Of a stretch of DNA of 64,000 nt, positions 10,519 through 61,983 are shown piece by piece. Both the position numbers and the translations under genes were made by a program. The DNA is from Escherichia coli (lineage in GTDB: Bacteria; Pseudomonadota; Gammaproteobacteria; Enterobacterales; Enterobacteriaceae): assembly GCF_016026235.1 (NCBI RefSeq), contig NZ_CP065613.1, one strand, 5' to 3'. The notes beneath the pieces are model-generated. The model did no database searches. It was not told where the DNA came from and saw nothing but the letters and a program-made list of their open reading frames with translations. Positions within the stretch are counted from its first letter, which is position 1; every line of letters begins with the position of its first letter.

Positions 10519-10605
<87 letters not shown>

Positions 10606-10638
10606 TCACCGTACTGCTTTACTTCATCAAATTTTAAT

Positions 10639-23867: not shown

Positions 23868-24413
23868 AGCATCCTCTTAGGTTCAGAAGCTTAAGCACGT
23901 AATCGGTTATGTTTTCAAAAGTGCAAAACCAGCGAGTTCGGGCTTCATATCAGTGAATATTTGCCTGTCTGAAATGAACTCATGGATTCATTTTCAAATA
24001 AAAAACGCTCTGTAATATGACGGCGGTCACACTTATTAGCTGGAAGGTGACTTTATGTGACTACCATCACTTTAATAATCGAAATTTCATGCCCGTTTCA
24101 GAAAATAAATCATAAAAAACACAAACCAGATGACCGTATTAATTGTTTATGCCGAAAACGGGCATTCCTGGCTTGAGTGAATAGAAAAATGACCGTTTTG
24201 ATAAATATTTTTAAGAGCGGTCATTTTTAATGGGGTTATAAAAAGAGAACTTGCAGTTATTTACTGTGATTAGTTGAACCAGGTCACAAAATATAAGCTT
24301 GTGAATTTCTTTCTGGTTAATCAGGAAGAAGATGGTGGGTAATTAAACGGCTAATTCAATAGTGTGAAAGGAACAACATTATTGCCCTGTTTTGAATCAG
24401 AGAGAGGTAGCTA
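23868..24413. promoter_or_regulatory. Divergent fucPIKUR / fucAO control region
   Basis: 546 bp AT-rich intergenic region between divergent operons; contains the inverted repeat AAAATGACCG ... CGGTCATTTT (about 24187-24229) and a related half-site near 24130. Confidence 0.6.
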
Positions 24414-25061
24414 ATGGAACGAAATAAACTTGCTCGTCAGATTATTGACACTTGCCTGGAAATGACCCGCCTGGGACTGAACCAGGGGACAGCGGGGAAC
24501 GTCAGTGTACGTTATCAGGATGGGATGCTGATTACGCCTACAGGCATTCCATATGAAAAACTGACGGAGTCGCATATTGTCTTTATTGATGGCAACGGTA
24601 AACATGAGGAAGGAAAGCTCCCCTCAAGCGAATGGCGTTTCCATATGGCGGCCTATCAAAGCAGACCGGATGCCAACGCGGTTGTTCACAATCATGCCGT
24701 TCATTGCACGGCAGTTTCCATTCTTAACCGATCGATCCCCGCTATTCACTACATGATTGCGGCGGCTGGCGGTAATTCTATTCCTTGCGCGCCTTATGCG
24801 ACCTTTGGAACACGTGAACTTTCTGAACATGTTGCGCAGGCTCTCAAAAATCGTAAGGCAACTTTGTTACAACATCATGGGCTTATCGCTTGTGAGGTGA
24901 ATCTGGAAAAAGCGTTATGGCTGGCGCATGAAGTTGAAGTGCTGGCGCAACTTTACCTGACGACCCTGGCGATTACGGACCCGGTGCCAGTGCTGAGCGA
25001 TGAAGAGATTGCCGTAGTGCTGGAGAAATTCAAAACCTATGGGTTACGAATTGAAGAGTAA
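24414..25061 (+). CDS. fucA: L-fuculose-1-phosphate aldolase
   Basis: 215 aa; class II aldolase; matches recalled FucA. Confidence 0.95.
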   Translation: MERNKLARQIIDTCLEMTRLGLNQGTAGNVSVRYQDGMLITPTGIPYEKLTESHIVFIDGNGKHEEGKLPSSEWRFHMAAYQSRPDANAVVHNHAVHCTAVSILNRSIPAIHYMIAAAGGNSIPCAPYATFGTRELSEHVAQALKNRKATLLQHHGLIACEVNLEKALWLAHEVEVLAQLYLTTLAITDPVPVLSDEEIAVVLEKFKTYGLRIEE

Positions 25062-25085
25062 TTTCGTAAAGCAACAAGGAGAAGG

Positions 25086-55260: not shown

Positions 55261-55932
55261 ATGCAGTACCCGATTAACGAGATGTTCCAGACCCTGCAAG
55301 GTGAGGGTTACTTTACCGGCGTCCCCGCCATTTTTATTCGTTTACAGGGATGCCCGGTTGGCTGTGCCTGGTGCGACACCAAACACACCTGGGAAAAGCT
55401 TGAGGATCGGGAAGTCTCCCTTTTCAGCATTCTGGCGAAGACCAAAGAGAGTGATAAGTGGGGGGCGGCGAGCAGTGAAGACTTGCTGGCTGTCATTGGT
55501 CGCCAGGGATATACCGCGCGGCATGTGGTGATTACGGGTGGTGAGCCTTGCATTCATGATTTGCTGCCACTGACTGACCTGCTCGAAAAGAACGGTTTTA
55601 GCTGCCAGATCGAAACCAGTGGTACTCATGAAGTACGCTGTACACCGAATACCTGGGTTACCGTATCGCCAAAGCTGAACATGCGCGGCGGCTATGAAGT
55701 GTTGTCACAGGCACTGGAGCGAGCCAACGAAATCAAGCATCCAGTGGGACGCGTACGTGATATTGAAGCACTGGATGAACTTTTGGCGACGCTGACCGAT
55801 GATAAACCGCGAGTCATTGCACTGCAGCCGATTAGCCAAAAGGATGATGCCACACGTTTGTGCATTGAAACCTGCATTGCGCGTAATTGGCGTTTGTCGA
55901 TGCAAACCCATAAATATTTAAATATTGCCTGA
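55261..55932 (+). CDS. queE: 7-carboxy-7-deazaguanine synthase (radical SAM)
   Basis: 223 aa; cysteine motif CPVGCAWCDT; matches recalled QueE/YgcF. Confidence 0.9.
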   Translation: MQYPINEMFQTLQGEGYFTGVPAIFIRLQGCPVGCAWCDTKHTWEKLEDREVSLFSILAKTKESDKWGAASSEDLLAVIGRQGYTARHVVITGGEPCIHDLLPLTDLLEKNGFSCQIETSGTHEVRCTPNTWVTVSPKLNMRGGYEVLSQALERANEIKHPVGRVRDIEALDELLATLTDDKPRVIALQPISQKDDATRLCIETCIARNWRLSMQTHKYLNIA

Positions 55933-56059
55933 TTAAACATTTATAAGCGTTATAAATGGGGGGAACCTGTAAAGACTTCTACTCATTTATATTCTTTGTC
56001 GCCTCTGAAAAAGCTCCATTTTGCCCATCCTGGACTAATCATTATCATTCTCTACAAAT

Positions 56060-56270
56060 TCTGTGGCGTTAATTTTTTGTTGGAGTGAAAATTATTGCGG
56101 TAAAGTTTGGTAGATTTTAGTTTGTATAGAATTATTTTAAATATTTACCTTTTTAATCAATGAGTTAAGTGCTCTTTAACATAATGGATGTGTTGTTTGT
56201 GTGATACTGTAAAGTTGGTAGATTGTGACTGGCTTAAAAAATCATTAATTAATAATAGGTTATGTTTAGA
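56060..56270 (+). promoter_or_regulatory. CRISPR leader (AT-rich) of the type I-E array
   Basis: AT-rich sequence ending ...CTGGCTTAAAAAATCATTAATTAATAATAGGTTATGTTTAGA immediately before repeat 1, as in E. coli I-E leaders. Confidence 0.7.
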
Positions 56271-56523
56271 GAGTTCCCCGCGCCAGCGGGGATAAACCGA
56301 TGACAAAAATTTGCAGGTGCTGGCAGAGGCCGAGTTCCCCGCGCCAGCGGGGATAAACCGTCAGGTGGGATGGTCAGCGCGAAACACACGCCGAGTTCCC
56401 CGCGCCAGCGGGGATAAACCGAGCGCGCAGTTATCAGCCGCGACAACATGAAAGAGTTCCCCGCGCCAGCGGGGATAAACCGCTCATATACGTTACAGCG
56501 TCGGAAATGGAGGCGAGTTCCCC

Positions 56524-57815
56524 TGAGGAATCCCCAGAAAACAAGACAGGCATAGTGAGATGTGATCTAATTGATTGTGCTAACAATTTCAAGGAGATCA
56601 CCACTATGCCTGCACGTTCATTATGCCAAAATTTCCTTAACAACATACTGGCCCCTTTGCATCTTTACCGTCAAAAATCACTGATTGACGCAACTAATGC
56701 TGTAATAAATGGCGCTTCCCTCACACTTACCAGTATCGGGCGTCATTTAACCGGTACGGCATCAGTTAAAAACAAAATAAAGCGGGTGGATCGACTGTTG
56801 GGGAATCGACATTTGCAAAATGAGGTTTCCACCATTTTTCAGCGAATTACCCAAAAGATTACGCGGGGAATGTCTCGTGTTGTGATACTCATTGACTGGA
56901 GTGCTTATCATGCCTCTCGTTTTCAGCTTTTGCGGGCAAGCCTGGCATGTGACGGGCGTTCTTTACCGTTGATGAGTTGTGTCGTTCCATCATCACAGAC
57001 AGCGAATGCAGATGTACATGAGCGTTTTCTGGAATCGCTTGCTGAGTGCTTTTCCCCCGGGACTGATGTCATTGTTATTACAGATGCCGGTTTTCAGGGG
57101 CGATGGTTCCAACAGCTCCGCTCCCGTGGCTGGACCTATATTTGCCGGGTACTGGGCAATCATTATTACAATGTTGGTAATGGCTGGGAAAAGGTGTCGG
57201 ACTCAGGCACAAAAGCATCAACGACAGCAATTTATTTAGGTGAAGGCCTGCTGGGTCGAGATAAAAATGCACAACATGAAGGGCATTTTTATCTTTATAA
57301 AAGTAAGCCTAAAGGTCGTAGATTTAAACGCTCGAAGGAAAGAGCAACCAGACCATCGGTGACGGCTAAAGCTCGTACTGCCGGGAAATCACCATGGTTT
57401 ATTTTCACAAACAGTACTGAGTTCTCGCCAAAACAGGTAATGAAATTATACAGCCGTAGAATGCAAATTGAGCAAAATTTCAGGGATGAAAAAAATCCTC
57501 GCTGGGGATTTGGACTACGGTTTGGTGCCAGTCATTCATCCGGGCGGGTCACGGTATTGAGTCTGATCGCAACATTAGCCAGTATCATTATGTGGTTAAG
57601 CGGTTTCAGCCTGGAAAACAAAGGGATACATCATAAATATCAGGCAAATACAGTGAAGCACAGGCGAGTCATCTCGTTATTAAAACTGGCGGAGAATGTG
57701 ATTCGACATTCTCCACTCATACTAAACACACTGTCACTTGACGCAGGGCTGAAAGTTCTACAGCAACGGTATACCAATATGATAATGGTTTACTAAATTT
57801 TCTGGGGATCCCTCA
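56524..57815 (+). mobile_element. IS4-family (IS10-like) insertion sequence, copy 1, inside a CRISPR repeat
   Basis: ~1.29 kb; imperfect terminal inverted repeats CTGAGG(A/G)ATCCCCAGAAAA; flanked by a direct duplication of 10-12 bp of repeat sequence (GCGAGTTCCCC); one transposase ORF. Confidence 0.85.
56606..57796 (+). CDS. IS4-family DDE transposase (IS10-like)
   Basis: 396 aa from ATG 56606 (AAGGAG SD); shares recalled IS10 transposase motifs (KRVDRLLGNRHL, LIDWS, ITDAGF, YSRRMQIEQNFRD, YQANTV); the track ORF start at 56507 is read-through from spacer 4. Confidence 0.8.
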   Translation: MPARSLCQNFLNNILAPLHLYRQKSLIDATNAVINGASLTLTSIGRHLTGTASVKNKIKRVDRLLGNRHLQNEVSTIFQRITQKITRGMSRVVILIDWSAYHASRFQLLRASLACDGRSLPLMSCVVPSSQTANADVHERFLESLAECFSPGTDVIVITDAGFQGRWFQQLRSRGWTYICRVLGNHYYNVGNGWEKVSDSGTKASTTAIYLGEGLLGRDKNAQHEGHFYLYKSKPKGRRFKRSKERATRPSVTAKARTAGKSPWFIFTNSTEFSPKQVMKLYSRRMQIEQNFRDEKNPRWGFGLRFGASHSSGRVTVLSLIATLASIIMWLSGFSLENKGIHHKYQANTVKHRRVISLLKLAENVIRHSPLILNTLSLDAGLKVLQQRYTNMIMVY

Positions 57816-58316
57816 GGCGAGTTCCCCGCGCCAGCGGGGATAAACCACCATATAACCCGTTATCTCTTTCTCAAGTTTTTATATTAGCAGTACTTGTAAT
57901 AAGCAACATATCCACGTAACACCTCATGTTCAAAATAGTTCTCCATGCCAGAGAAGTTCACAATTATCGATACAAAAAATTAAGTTTAATCAAAGTATTA
58001 TTTGTATGATTCTTAAATCATTAAGAAATTTTAATATATTATTTTTTTAATATTAATTAATGCCTGTTAATTTTTGCTTAAGTATAACAGTGTATTTTTT
58101 AAGCTTGTTATTCATTGATTAAGTAATAAATCTGGAAGTTTGTCTTTGTTTTGAGGCTAATGAGTGGTTTTACATAACCGCCTCTATACGCTGTTGATGA
58201 ATAGTTCTTATGAATAAAGATATTCAGTTCATACTTTAAGTGAAAATTGATAAAGTGCGATTCGTATTGTCTTTTATTCTAAAGACATCGAGTGTAGTTA
58301 ATATTCCTTGTAAAAA

Positions 58317-58376
58317 CAGGGATAAACCGAACTAGTTAAAGTTTTTATTATGTTCCCCGCGTCAGCGGGGATAACC
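58317..58376 (+). repeat. Degenerate CRISPR repeat remnant
   Basis: cagggataaaccg, then ~22 bp, then GTTCCCCGCGTCAGCGGGGATAACC (diverged from the canonical repeat), preceded by ~450 bp of AT-rich sequence. Confidence 0.55.
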
Positions 58377-58423
58377 ATTCAGGTATGTTCAGGCCGGGCT
58401 GTTTCCCGCCCGGCCTTCCTCAC

Positions 58424-59902
58424 TTACGCATTCGACCAGCTCTGGATCGAATCCGCATTCCCCAATTCCCCATGCATCACTTCATACGATTTTTTCAGGA
58501 TCACATCAGTATGTTTGGTTAGGTCTTTGAAAATGCCTTTATTCATCGCGTCGTAGCGTTTGGCATTGCTCTCAACAGGCATAAAGATATCTTTCACGCG
58601 AACCATTTTGTCGACAGCCGTTGCGTAATCCGGGTATAGCCCCAGACCTACCGCCGTATTGATCGCTGCCCCCAGACTTGCACAACCGTTAATGGCGTTA
58701 CGGCGTGCCGGAAGGTTGAACACGTCGGCAAAAATTTGCATAAACAGATCGCTGTTCGAACCGCCGCCAGTAATGATCACATGCTTTGCAAAGTGATTCA
58801 TTTCATTACACATATTGTCGTAATTGTTCTTCAGCGTCAGCGCCACGCTTTCCAGTATCGAACGATATATCCATGCGTAATCCATGCTGGAATCAAAGCC
58901 GATCATAATCCCGCGTTTGTACGGTTCCCACGGATTGGTCAGCCAGTCCAGCACCGTCATCAGCCCATTACAGCCAGGTGGCACACTAGAGGCTTTCTTG
59001 TTGAGTAAATCTTCCGGTGAAAGATCCTGAGCCCTGGCATCCTGAATTAACGACTCGCCTAGCATGTCGCGCAGCCAGCTCACCGTCCACATGCCTTTGC
59101 GAATACCGTAACCTTCATACAGCAATGTTTGCGGAATAGAAGACATAATCGGCCAGTACGCCACCGGATCTTTCGGCAGTGCTTTGCCGTTCATCATCAA
59201 TGCGATGTAAGTGCCAAGAGAAATTACCGCAGTTTCATCATCCAGTAATCCGGCCCCCAGAGCTTCTACCGGTTTATCACTGGTGGTACAAACAACCGGC
59301 AGTCCTGCCGGGAAATGTGTCGCCAGTGCGGCTTGTGGTGTGATATGTCCGAGGACGGTGCCAGGCATTTGCACATCAAACAGCATATGACGGGGGATAT
59401 TAAACTTCTCCATTACCGCAGCATCTTCGCTCCATGCCCAGCTCTTATAATCCACCGGCCACTGACCAAAATAGTTGGCGATATTGTCTTTAAACTCGCC
59501 GGTTAAGCGATGCGTCAGATAACCCGAAAAAGAGGTGACATAGGCCACGTCAGGATTAGTGTGTTCGTAGGGACGCGTTACGCGTGCATCCTGCCAGCTA
59601 ATCAATGGCGCAGCTGGCGTGCCATCGGCTTTCAATAACGCACGGCAGCAACGGATGGATCCCAGACCAATACCGACAATATCTTCTTTATTCCCGGCAA
59701 ACTGACTCATCAAATCGTGACCGGCAAAACATAATGATGCCCATAAATCGTCGTCAGGATGTTCTGCGGTATCGGCATCTGGCGTGTGCATCGGCTGCAA
59801 TAAGCCTTTACCTTCGCAAACCACATTACCTTCCAGATCGTACATCACCACTTTTGTGCTCTGACTTCCGCCATCAATCCCTATGATGTATTTTTTCGAC
59901 AT
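58424..59902 (-). CDS. ygcE: FGGY-family sugar kinase YgcE
   Basis: 492 aa; MSKKYIIGIDGGSQSTKVVMYDLEG...; glycerol/xylulose-kinase-like. Confidence 0.85.
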   Translation of the reverse strand: MSKKYIIGIDGGSQSTKVVMYDLEGNVVCEGKGLLQPMHTPDADTAEHPDDDLWASLCFAGHDLMSQFAGNKEDIVGIGLGSIRCCRALLKADGTPAAPLISWQDARVTRPYEHTNPDVAYVTSFSGYLTHRLTGEFKDNIANYFGQWPVDYKSWAWSEDAAVMEKFNIPRHMLFDVQMPGTVLGHITPQAALATHFPAGLPVVCTTSDKPVEALGAGLLDDETAVISLGTYIALMMNGKALPKDPVAYWPIMSSIPQTLLYEGYGIRKGMWTVSWLRDMLGESLIQDARAQDLSPEDLLNKKASSVPPGCNGLMTVLDWLTNPWEPYKRGIMIGFDSSMDYAWIYRSILESVALTLKNNYDNMCNEMNHFAKHVIITGGGSNSDLFMQIFADVFNLPARRNAINGCASLGAAINTAVGLGLYPDYATAVDKMVRVKDIFMPVESNAKRYDAMNKGIFKDLTKHTDVILKKSYEVMHGELGNADSIQSWSNA

Positions 59903-59928: not shown

Positions 59929-61983
59929 TTACTTGCTGCTAGCTATTGCGGGGGCGCTATCAGCAGTACGAATTTTTTGGAACAGCAAAAAGGTAAAGAC
60001 GATCACCATGCCGAGCGCCGCCATGCCCATCAGCCACATATTGCGGTAGGCTTCTGCTGCGGGCAGGGTGTCTTGCCAGTGGCCGATAATTGGGTAAACG
60101 AAGACATCCGGCAGGAATCCTATCACCGAACAAATACCTACCGTGGTGCCCATAATGTAAGACGGTGTTCTCGCTTCGCCGGGGCAGGCCCAGTACAGTC
60201 CACGTGAGGCGTAGCAGGTGAATCCCAGCAGTAAAATCAGGCCAATCCCCATTGCGACCGATTGCGGGTTAGAGTTGGTAACAAGCAGGGCAGTCAGTGC
60301 CAGCAGGCCGATGATGGAAAGGATTTGGATCACGCGGGTAGGGGATTTCACTTTGCTGTAGGTGGTGATTATGCCGCCAAGTGGGCCGCACAGCGCGCGG
60401 AATATTTTGTTGATCACAATCCCCATGTAGCTCGCCGCCACCAGCGACATGCCGTACATTTCGGTCAGATAGTTGGTGGAGGTAATGACTCCAACTTATT
60501 GATAGTGTTTTATGTTCAGATAATGCCCGATGACTTTGTCATGCAGCTCCACCGATTTTGAGAACGACAGCGACTTCCGTCCCAGCCGTGCCAGGTGCTG
60601 CCTCAGATTCAGGTTATGCCGCTCAATTCGCTGCGTATATCGCTTGCTGATTACGTGCAGCTTTCCCTTCAGGCGGGATTCATACAGCGGCCAGCCATCC
60701 GTCATCCATATCACCACGTCAAAGGGTGACAGCAGGCTCATAAGACGCCCCAGCGTCGCCATAGTGCGTTCACCGAATACGTGCGCAACAACCGTCTTCC
60801 GGAGACTGTCATACGCGTAAAACAGCCAGCGCTGGCGCGATTTAGCCCCGACATAGCCCCACTGTTCGTCCATTTCCGCGCAGACGATGACGTCACTGCC
60901 CGGCTGTATGCGCGAGGTTACCGACTGCGGCCTGAGTTTTTTAAGTGACGTAAAATCGTGTTGAGGCCAACGCCCATAATGCGGGCAGTTGCCCGGCATC
61001 CAACGCCATTCATGGCCATATCAATGATTTTCTGGTGCGTACCGGGTTGAGAAGCGGTGTAAGTGAACTGCAGTTGCCATGTTTTACGGCAGTGAGAGCA
61101 GAGATAGCGCTGATGTCCGGCGGTGCTTTTGCCGTTACGCACCACCCCGTCAGTAGCTGAACAGGAGGGACAGCTGATAGAAACAGAAGCCACTGGAGCA
61201 CCTCAAAAACACCATCATACACTAAATCAGTAAGTTGGCAGCATCACCGTTGGTGGAGTAACTCAGAATGGCGTAGATGGTGAAGACACCAAAAATCACC
61301 ATGCTGCAATACCAGGTGGTGCTGATGCGCAAAACGGCCAGGATGTCGCTAAGCTGGAATGATTGTTTTTCTTCGTTATTGGCACTGCGCAGGTTGTTGT
61401 TATCGCTAACAAAAAACCAGCACAGAATCCCCAACAAGATGTAAACCACACTATAGATGATAATGACCGTTTTCAGGCTGGTGCTGTCATCCGGTGCAAA
61501 GCGAGAAAAAACCCACATGGTAAACACTGCCAGCGACATTACACCGACGCCGCGCAGCCCTTCCATCCAGCCCATAATTTTCCCTTGCTCGCTATGATCG
61601 CCAAGCAACGAGGCGGCTTTAATCGACACCGACCACAGCATTAAAATCGTCGTTATCGCAAATGCGACCTGAATACAGAGCATTACCCACAGCGGTGGAT
61701 ACGTTGCCATTAACAGACCCAGTAATCCGGTAATGATCATCGCGGAAGTAATCATTTTGCGATGTGAGAATTTATCGGCAATAACGCCGCTGGGGGCATA
61801 AAGAATAATAGCTGCAATACCAAAGGTACTCATTATTAAACCTATCTCGGTATTGCTGAATCCCATAAATTTCGCCATGGGAATTTGATAAATATAACGT
61901 AAATAAGCCAGGTCGAAACTAACGCCGCCGCTAAAACTAATTATCGCGAGGGTTATCCAACGGCGATATGAGTTGTGTTGCAT
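59929..61983 (-). pseudogene. yqcE: MFS transporter YqcE-like, disrupted by IS1
   Basis: N-terminal part 61249-61983 and C-terminal part 59929-60480 are in the same reading frame across a 768-bp IS1 plus 9-bp duplication; together ~425 aa. Confidence 0.8.
60481..61248 (-). mobile_element. IS1: IS1 insertion sequence (insA 60918-61193, insB 60496-60999)
   Basis: 768 bp; ends GGTAATGACTCCAACTTATTGAT (plus strand) and reverse complement of GGTGATGCTGCCAACTTACTGAT; InsA ([23 protein letters not shown]...) and InsB ORFs; 9-bp target duplication GTTGGTGGA at 60472-60480 and 61249-61257. Confidence 0.95.

Follow-up and report, generated by a model that had tools for sequence, protein, structure and literature searches.

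A type I-E CRISPR array of Escherichia coli ends here in a repeat that is split by an insertion sequence (IS). This raises three questions: whether the split reflects a real transposition, why this particular repeat was hit, and whether the array was inactivated by the event. The first-pass annotation of the window (the whole 64,000-nt stretch of DNA that was analysed) had described an IS10-like element of ~1.29 kb in the fifth repeat, and had considered that it could alter pre-crRNA processing or inactivate the array. As detailed below, a simple, real transposition of ISEc60 into the terminal repeat of CRISPR-II, within an overall neutral IS expansion, is very likely. This makes the initial observation a correct one of an ordinary event; functional importance is not supported. 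The new points are modest and concern the target logo of ISEc60, the way in which this logo fits the I-E repeat, and the existence of same-site insertions in opposite orientations.

The CRISPR-II array and its terminal repeat

The host array corresponds to E. coli CRISPR-II (CRISPR2.3), located between queE/ygcF and ygcE, and comprises a leader, four spacers and five repeats. The array repeats are 29 nt long (GAGTTCCCCGCGCCAGCGGGGATAAACCG) and start at 56271, 56332, 56393 and 56454, with a period of 61 nt. The locus is organized as follows:

55261-55932, + strand: queE/ygcF, upstream of the array leader
56100-56270, + strand: AT-rich leader of CRISPR-II (CRISPR2.3), collinear with the annotated array leaders of strains S40 and FDAARGOS_943
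56271-56514, + strand: four intact repeat-spacer units, with repeats at 56271-56299, 56332-56360, 56393-56421 and 56454-56482
56483-56514, + strand: spacer 4; spacers 1-4 are 32 nt each, as defined by the 61-nt spacing of the repeat family
56515-56522, + strand: 5' stump of the terminal repeat, GAGTTCCC, without the Cas6e hairpin (from sequence and fold)
57819-57847, + strand: complete terminal repeat, ending in AAACCA, restored by the duplication; its hairpin forms, and the terminal repeat and flank of S40 are identical
58319-58378, + strand: degenerate CRISPR2.2 remnant, about 0.5 kb downstream and adjoining ygcE (from repeat families; layout as in PMC3903273)
58424-59902, - strand: ygcE, beyond the CRISPR2.2 remnant

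Naming and layout of the locus (CRISPR2.3 with its leader, CRISPR2.2 remnant, type-2 repeats, ygcF side) follow earlier descriptions (PMC2886076; PMC3903273). The 29-nt repeats, the 32-nt spacers, the position between ygcF (queE) and ygcE and the leader at the ygcF side all agree with CRISPR2.3, and the placement is also backed by synteny with annotated arrays of other strains. An Rfam scan of 56000-58500 (E up to 1) gave no match to any CRISPR-DR family. RNA folding shows that repeat 4 forms the expected hairpin. The iap-cysH locus of the source genome lies beyond the end of the window.

Identity of the inserted element

Judged by its sequence, the inserted element is ISEc60, a member of the IS10 group of the IS4 family. 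The following parts can be recognized, together with a second copy:

56523-57816, + strand: complete ISEc60, 1,294 bp, 100% identical to RefSeq copies named 'IS4-like element ISEc60'
56523-56541, + strand: left inverted repeat (IRL), CTGAGGAATCCCCAGAAAA, no GATC (repeat search and sequence)
57798-57816, - strand: right inverted repeat (IRR), CTGAGGGATCCCCAGAAAA, with GATC at 57807-57810 (repeat search and sequence)
56606-57796, + strand: intact transposase, 396 aa, identical to WP_001111632.1
63588-64000, - strand: another copy of ISEc60, opposite in orientation to copy 1 and truncated by the end of the window; target GAGAATGCCC; 413 nt with 0 mismatches to copy 1

All 1,294 nt are identical (1,294/1,294) to copies in CFSAN029787, RMDEC332/364, VL46 and FDAARGOS_943, the latter genome carrying ISEc60 in about 38 places. 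The name is that of the RefSeq/PGAP annotation and was attributed from 100% identity over 1,292-1,294 nt to several such copies. Other carriers of identical copies, which we take to be enteroinvasive strains, have pINV-sized plasmids of about 290 kb. The intact terminal inverted repeats reported initially are 19 bp long and match at 18 of 19 positions, IRL and IRR differing at position 7. The element begins with CTGAGG and ends with CCTCAG, and the left junction of the repeat stump with the IS reads GAGTTCCC-CTGAGGRATCCCC. The full transposase ORF of the first-pass annotation was also recovered, with an annotated protein start at 56606; a mechanical ORF from 56507 (429 aa) begins in spacer 4 and crosses the IS end.

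The IS4 family is characterized by a Y-(2)-R-(3)-E-(6)-K signature that includes the catalytic E. In the transposase, this signature is carried by YSRRMQIEQNFRDEK, and the other catalytic motifs are LIDWS and ITDAGF. The protein matches NCBIfam NF033591 'IS4 family transposase' with 360.5 bits (cut-off 152) and Pfam DDE_Tnp_1 at 2.8e-20. The DDE profile, the YREK signature and the inverted ends with a flanking duplication concur in placing this ~1.29 kb element in the IS4 family, as first proposed. A PDB sequence search with the transposase returned nothing at E up to 0.01.

The likeness to IS10 deserves comment. IS10A (Tn10) belongs to the same IS4 family and its DDE and YREK motifs align with those of ISEc60, YSRRMQIEQNFRDEK standing opposite YAKRMQIEETFRDLK. 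The ends of the two elements share CTGA.G.ATCCCC, their first 13 nt differing at one position, and in both GATC is found only in the transposase-distal end. GATC in the 5' control region, a fold-back over the ribosome-binding site and a palindromic target are further common traits. However, the transposases are only 36% identical, over 93% of the protein, IS10 generates a 9-bp duplication (PMC2758499; PMC10359306) instead of 10 bp, and its target is NRCWNWRYN instead of GGGAWWTCCC. Moreover, no Rfam match to a homologue of RNA-OUT, the IS10 antisense RNA, was obtained in 56000-58500 (E up to 1). IS10 proper was rejected on the basis of the 36% amino acid identity, the 10-bp duplication and the lack of an RNA-OUT match. 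Thus, 'IS10-like' remains appropriate with respect to the IS10 subgroup, the IS10-type ends and the transposase identity, provided that ISEc60 is regarded as a distinct IS. The profile hits and the 36% identity to IS10A also dispose of the possibility, envisaged in the first-pass annotation, that transposase homology would be lacking. The closest differently named relative found, ISSfl1 from the Shigella flexneri pINV, shows 51.6% amino acid identity over the full length and is a distinct IS.

The 19-nt end occurs in 97 stretches of the genome collection, mostly in related IS, found in Photorhabdus, Xenorhabdus, Serratia, Kosakonia, Pragia and Arsenophonus. In other Enterobacterales, related IS with this end are likewise inserted in short GC palindromes. 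A metagenome scan with the left end of ISEc60 returned only three loci. In the literature, two papers mention the element, both unrelated in subject. The element itself is already known; the insertion site alone differs.

Boundaries of the insertion and target duplication

The element is bordered by two copies of a short sequence, both delimited by comparison with other ISEc60 copies:

56513-56522, no strand: left copy of the target duplication, GCGAGTTCCC, 10 bp
57817-57826, no strand: right copy of the target duplication, GCGAGTTCCC, 10 bp

Boundaries were calibrated with 13 further full ISEc60 copies, 12 of which have matched flanks. With C56523 and G57816 as ends, a 10-bp duplication is obtained in 12/12 paired copies, two of them extending to 11. 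With 56524 and 57815, the ends given by the first-pass annotation, several copies are left without any duplication. The element was therefore correctly located, its true ends being C56523 and G57816, and the duplication of 10-12 bp first described is genuine, with a length now fixed at 10 bp; 12 bp are apparent since the first base of the IS is C and its last base is G. Likewise, the fifth repeat is indeed split, after its eighth base rather than its ninth.

The duplication can hardly be a coincidence of repeat sequence, an eventuality raised at the outset. A 10/10 match at fixed positions has a chance probability of about 1e-6. In addition, two of the ten duplicated bases (GC) belong to spacer 4, the other repeats being preceded by GA, CC, CC and AA, so that two neighbouring repeats cannot account for the duplication. 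Removal of the IS and of one duplicate from the window yields a normal terminal repeat followed by the downstream flank, as found intact in strain S40. Among 5,426 complete E. coli genomes, none has an empty site with the same terminal spacer, and none has the exact junction or configuration (same orientation, four spacers); only FDAARGOS_943 has ISEc60 beside CRISPR repeats.

It should be noted that the genome contains many identical ISEc60 copies, one of which lies 5.8 kb from the first in inverted orientation, and that these could mislead an assembly or rearrange the locus. Nevertheless, an assembly artefact, or a junction produced by recombination between two IS copies, is extremely improbable. 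The two 10-bp copies match perfectly, each flank continues as in the normal locus, and the independent complete assembly of FDAARGOS_943 has the IS at exactly the same junctions. Moreover, a genuine recombination product, at CRISPR-I of FDAARGOS_943, shows unmatched flanks (see below). An inversion between the two inverted copies of the window was also rejected, since copy 1 retains an intact duplication on its two sides. The initial claim of a real transposition is upheld by the 10-bp duplication and the collinear flanks. By analogy with IS10, ISEc60 would have entered the last repeat of the chromosomal CRISPR-II (CRISPR2.3) array by a DDE-catalysed cut-and-paste reaction. A staggered cut would have spanned 10 bp, namely the last two bases of spacer 4 and the first eight of the repeat, and its repair would have duplicated GCGAGTTCCC.

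The same site in FDAARGOS_943

The left 52 kb of the window are collinear with E. coli FDAARGOS_943, the closest complete genome, at 99.94%, and the identity of the flanks is 99.9%. CRISPR-II of FDAARGOS_943 contains this same array plus one additional spacer. ISEc60 is found there at the identical position, with the same duplication and in the opposite orientation, and this copy is itself split by an ISSso6-IS66-ISSso6 block. Array content and IS position and orientation provide a lineage marker with respect to FDAARGOS_943. The same-site, opposite-orientation pattern is also observed between RMDEC332 and RMDEC364.

These data raise the question of whether a single ancestral insertion, shared with FDAARGOS_943, was later flipped in place. 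The use of the same repeat with the same 10-bp duplication, within flanks 99.9% identical and in opposite orientation, would fit such a history, as would the RMDEC332/RMDEC364 pair. Tandem IS-10bp-IS dimers (L005, L110), indicating that a duplicated target is re-used, make conceivable a route in which a second, opposite insertion into the duplicated target is followed by loss of the first copy; two independent hits are the alternative. However, a palindromic hot spot is expected to accept both orientations, as a plasmid hairpin does, and the 1-nt offsets at that hairpin indicate independent events there. Furthermore, a crossover between the 19-bp ends would have to fall within the first 6 bp. 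Inversion in place by recombination between the IS ends was rejected, IRL and IRR differing at position 7 and each junction carrying the expected variant. To our knowledge, no IS10-type reaction flips an element in place. A shared insertion followed by a flip thus appears rather unlikely.

FDAARGOS_943 has neither a cas-E operon nor a CRISPR-I array, and a single ISEc60 lies between hok and iap; among complete genomes, the hok-ISEc60 junction occurs in FDAARGOS_943 only. The flanks of this copy are unmatched (left, GGTAAAACCC; right, TAGAATTCCC). By comparison with the intact CRISPR-I of strain 48, the right flank TAGAATTCCC consists of the final two nucleotides of a spacer and of GAATTCCC, which derives from the degenerate terminal repeat of CRISPR-I. 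The insertion register at CRISPR-I is the same as at CRISPR-II. On sequence grounds, the loss of CRISPR-I and cas-E in FDAARGOS_943 is the footprint of recombination between two ISEc60 copies.

Such events have precedents. Earlier work has described IS insertions in the I-E repeats of E. coli and Shigella, viewed GC-rich repeats as insertion hot spots, attributed deletions of cas-E to recombination between IS copies, and recorded sporadic IS of no consequence in CRISPR-II (PMC2886076; PMC3903273); cas loss by IS has been described as well (PMC2886076). In particular, IS186 and 'ISu' in CRISPR-I/II of E. coli are the same kind of insertion into GC-rich I-E repeats, and a copy near hok (cysH-distal) together with a copy in the array led to the removal of most of CRISPR-I along with the leader and cas-E, as in FDAARGOS_943 (Almendros et al., 2014; PMC3903273). 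The present case differs in that the element is ISEc60 and that the window shows the CRISPR-II terminal repeat. 'ISu' might correspond to ISEc60; an 82%-identical relative in strain TC24 is not at the CRISPR-I locus. The locus is one more example of IS elements eroding type I-E loci.

Target preference of ISEc60

Fifteen non-CRISPR ISEc60 targets define a palindromic consensus, GGGAWWTCCC, often then followed by CGC. The symmetrised counts at these 15 sites are G 28/30, G 27/30, G 24/30, A 21/30 and W 28/30, then the mirror image. The start of every I-E repeat, GAGTTCCCCGC (GAG-TTCCCCGC), is a near-perfect half-site of GGGAWWTCCC(CGC), and because spacer 4 ends in GGC, the terminal repeat is the best target of the five in the array. 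When the core is extended by four bases on either side (18-nt model), the observed site comes 24th among 62,266 window positions; it reaches 9.3 bits, and the remaining four repeats 3.2-6.5. The half-site TTCCCCGCG is 17th among 124,550. The core 10-mer GCGAGTTCCC scores 6.0 bits and belongs to the top 0.2% of window 10-mers. This value is lower than that of all 15 training sites (7.5-15), and GGGATAAACC, with which all repeats end on their 3' side, is unused despite a score above that of the core (9.4 bits); the target matrix, derived from few sites, is thus incomplete.

Targets are also used repeatedly. One plasmid hairpin was taken in both orientations (five records, with 1-nt offsets), paralogous hok loci were taken in two strains, and the tandem dimers mentioned above exist. 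This recurrent re-use supports a strong site preference. The insertion site was probably chosen owing to the palindromic target preference of ISEc60. More speculatively, ISEc60 and its relatives may recognise a 10-16-bp palindrome, (GCG)GGGAWWTCCC(CGC), I-E arrays being recurrent landing pads where cas genes are lost by IS-IS recombination, as in FDAARGOS_943, and where the orientation of the element can change. If this tentative proposal is true, ISEc60 has an in-built bias against CRISPR-Cas. As far as we found, a target logo for ISEc60 has not been described; it would account for IS in CRISPR repeats, in hok terminator hairpins and in the plasmid hairpin.

Consequences for CRISPR function

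In type I-E systems, the repeat hairpin is where Cas6e binds and cleaves, and each crRNA carries its spacer between an 8-nt 5' handle and a 21-nt hairpin handle. Here, spacer 4 is now followed by GAGUUCCC and IS sequence, and the predicted fold of 56454-56545 shows no repeat hairpin after it. Deprived of a downstream Cas6e hairpin, spacer 4 should not give rise to a mature crRNA. The leader, the adaptation site, repeats 1-4 and spacers 1-3 are intact, and the restored repeat after the IS folds normally and has no partner. With the IS placed in the terminal repeat, the effect is confined to spacer 4, the oldest one. Altered pre-crRNA processing, as suggested initially, is thus predicted for spacer 4 and does not extend to the leader, repeats 1-4 or spacers 1-3.

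A selected, CRISPR-inactivating insertion would go further, with the IS blocking production or processing of the pre-crRNA, for instance so as to tolerate a targeted plasmid. Documented cases of CRISPR-Cas inactivation by IS concern cas genes (Sheng et al., 2023; PMC10359306), and the ISEc60-bearing strains do carry plasmids of ~290 kb. Nevertheless, all spacers precede the IS, four of the five repeat hairpins are intact, as is the leader, and the sister genome FDAARGOS_943 lacks the cas-E genes, leaving nothing to inactivate. For CRISPR-II, it was also noted that IS found there sporadically 'had no apparent impact' (PMC3903273). Selection for inactivation is therefore very unlikely, and the corresponding suggestion of the first-pass annotation is not supported. 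Whereas IS-mediated inactivation implies disruption of a cas gene, of the leader or of all crRNAs, none of these is seen here. In the case of Sheng et al. (2023; PMC10359306), an IS also disrupts a CRISPR-Cas locus, but a cas gene is hit; here, the last repeat is hit and one spacer, not immunity, is predicted to be lost. By analogy with FDAARGOS_943, which has lost cas-E, the array is probably an orphan in this lineage. We infer that the event reflects an essentially neutral spread of IS in an E. coli lineage rich in such elements.

A fold-back hairpin at the start of ISEc60

The 5' part of the element contains one more feature:

56547-56612, + strand: fold-back hairpin, with outer arms at 56547-56557 and 56602-56612 (inverted-repeat search and fold)

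A promoter scan detected no sigma-70-like promoter inside 56523-56606 and no outward promoter-like site near the IS 5' end. A candidate picked out by eye (AAGACA, 17 nt, TGaTCTAAT) fails the scan rule and is not claimed. In transcripts entering from outside the IS, the outer arms and an inner stem are predicted to bury the Shine-Dalgarno sequence (56592-56596) and the AUG (56606). The predicted structure has a stability of -45 kcal/mol (z -3.9), with 0/200 shuffles as stable. RNA starting at 56578 is unstructured in the fold prediction. By analogy with IS10, ISEc60 may be under Dam control, and read-through from the array leader into the IS would fold back over the ribosome-binding site of the transposase. 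Such a fold-back would protect the element from chance activation by promoters outside it. Sixteen related IS retain the structure, and one of its pairs occurs as CG, AU and UA.

Loss of the cas-E Operon and CRISPR-I in FDAARGOS_943

FDAARGOS_943, the complete genome closest to that of the window strain, lacks both the entire cas-E operon and the array of CRISPR-I; a single ISEc60 stands in their place between hok and iap.

L007 (FDAARGOS_943 stretch) 23884-25403, corresponding to NZ_CP065615.1 4780883-4782402: ISEc60 replacing cas-E and CRISPR-I

The left and right flanks of this copy do not match each other. Its right flank is a degenerate CRISPR-I terminal repeat, cut in the same register as that of CRISPR-II. 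The hok-iap ISEc60 of FDAARGOS_943 is the footprint of IS-IS recombination.

Target Sites and Orientation

The window (56523-57816) and FDAARGOS_943 (L007 5264-12112) both carry an ISEc60 in the terminal repeat of CRISPR-II, at one and the same position and flanked by an identical 10-bp duplication, but in reversed orientation. Likewise, at a CS1-fimbrial intergenic site, the copies of RMDEC332 and RMDEC364 (loci L002 and L003) are reversed relative to each other, site and 10-bp duplication being identical. These two cases of opposite orientation at one site each involve very close relatives. Independent hits of ISEc60 on a hot spot would fit such pairs, as would an in-place flip of the element. 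Direct tandem dimers of ISEc60 were found on the plasmid pCFSAN029787_01 and on the VL46 chromosome. The two units are spaced by the 10-bp duplication GGGATTTACC alone, and the second copy must therefore have inserted into the target that the first had duplicated.

The 19-nt end CTGAGGRATCCCCAGAAAA is common to several distinct IS, recovered as genome-contig matches (L009-L105) from Photorhabdus, Xenorhabdus, Serratia, Kosakonia, Pragia, Arsenophonus and other hosts. Subgroups of these IS each have their own short GC palindrome as site, for instance CCGCNNNGCG or CCCTTGAGGG. The flanks of the IS in Xenorhabdus griffiniae are themselves a repeated sequence (ttatatctccCCGC…).

Other IS Copies in the Window

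Two further insertions lie downstream of the first ISEc60:

60480-61248: IS1, 769 bp, interrupting yqcE
63588-64000, minus strand, cut off by the window end: second ISEc60, identical to the first, in the ygcU region (target GAGAATGCCC)

The second ISEc60 is located 5.8 kb downstream of the first and inverted relative to it, so that the two copies bracket ygcE-yqcE-ygcW and could invert this segment. The IS1 in yqcE is 100% identical to an IS1 found upstream of queE in FDAARGOS_943, a site where the window carries none. As IS1 sites thus differ, several recent IS moves separate the two strains.

The 5' Region of ISEc60

A conserved fold-back structure is found in this region:

56547-56612: hairpin that covers the transposase start codon and its Shine-Dalgarno sequence

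A GATC (56564-67) lies inside the conserved block TGTGATCTA, further GATC being found at the right end only. IS10 is subject to Dam control and protected from read-through. The hairpin and GATC arrangement of ISEc60 resembles the layout of IS10; the comparison with IS10A covered where GATC falls in its ends and in its 5' region.

Upstream of its annotated start, the transposase frame continues without a stop across the left inverted repeat and reaches an ATG within spacer 4 at 56507 (56507-57796), giving a mechanical ORF of 429 aa versus the annotated 396 aa. This extension is probably coincidental. Near the right end of the IS, a sigma-70-like consensus match (57757-57786, plus strand; TCTACA, 18 nt, GATAAT) is directed outward, to the regenerated repeat.

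Other Features

58319-58378: degenerate CRISPR2.2 remnant, GGGATAAACCG … GTTCCCCGCGTCAGCGGGGATAACC, adjoining ygcE

Such a remnant beside ygcE is arranged as in many E. coli. Finally, at the tRNA-Met tandem (10527-10607) the alignment between the window and FDAARGOS_943 overlaps with itself, which suggests that the two strains differ in the number of tRNA-Met units.
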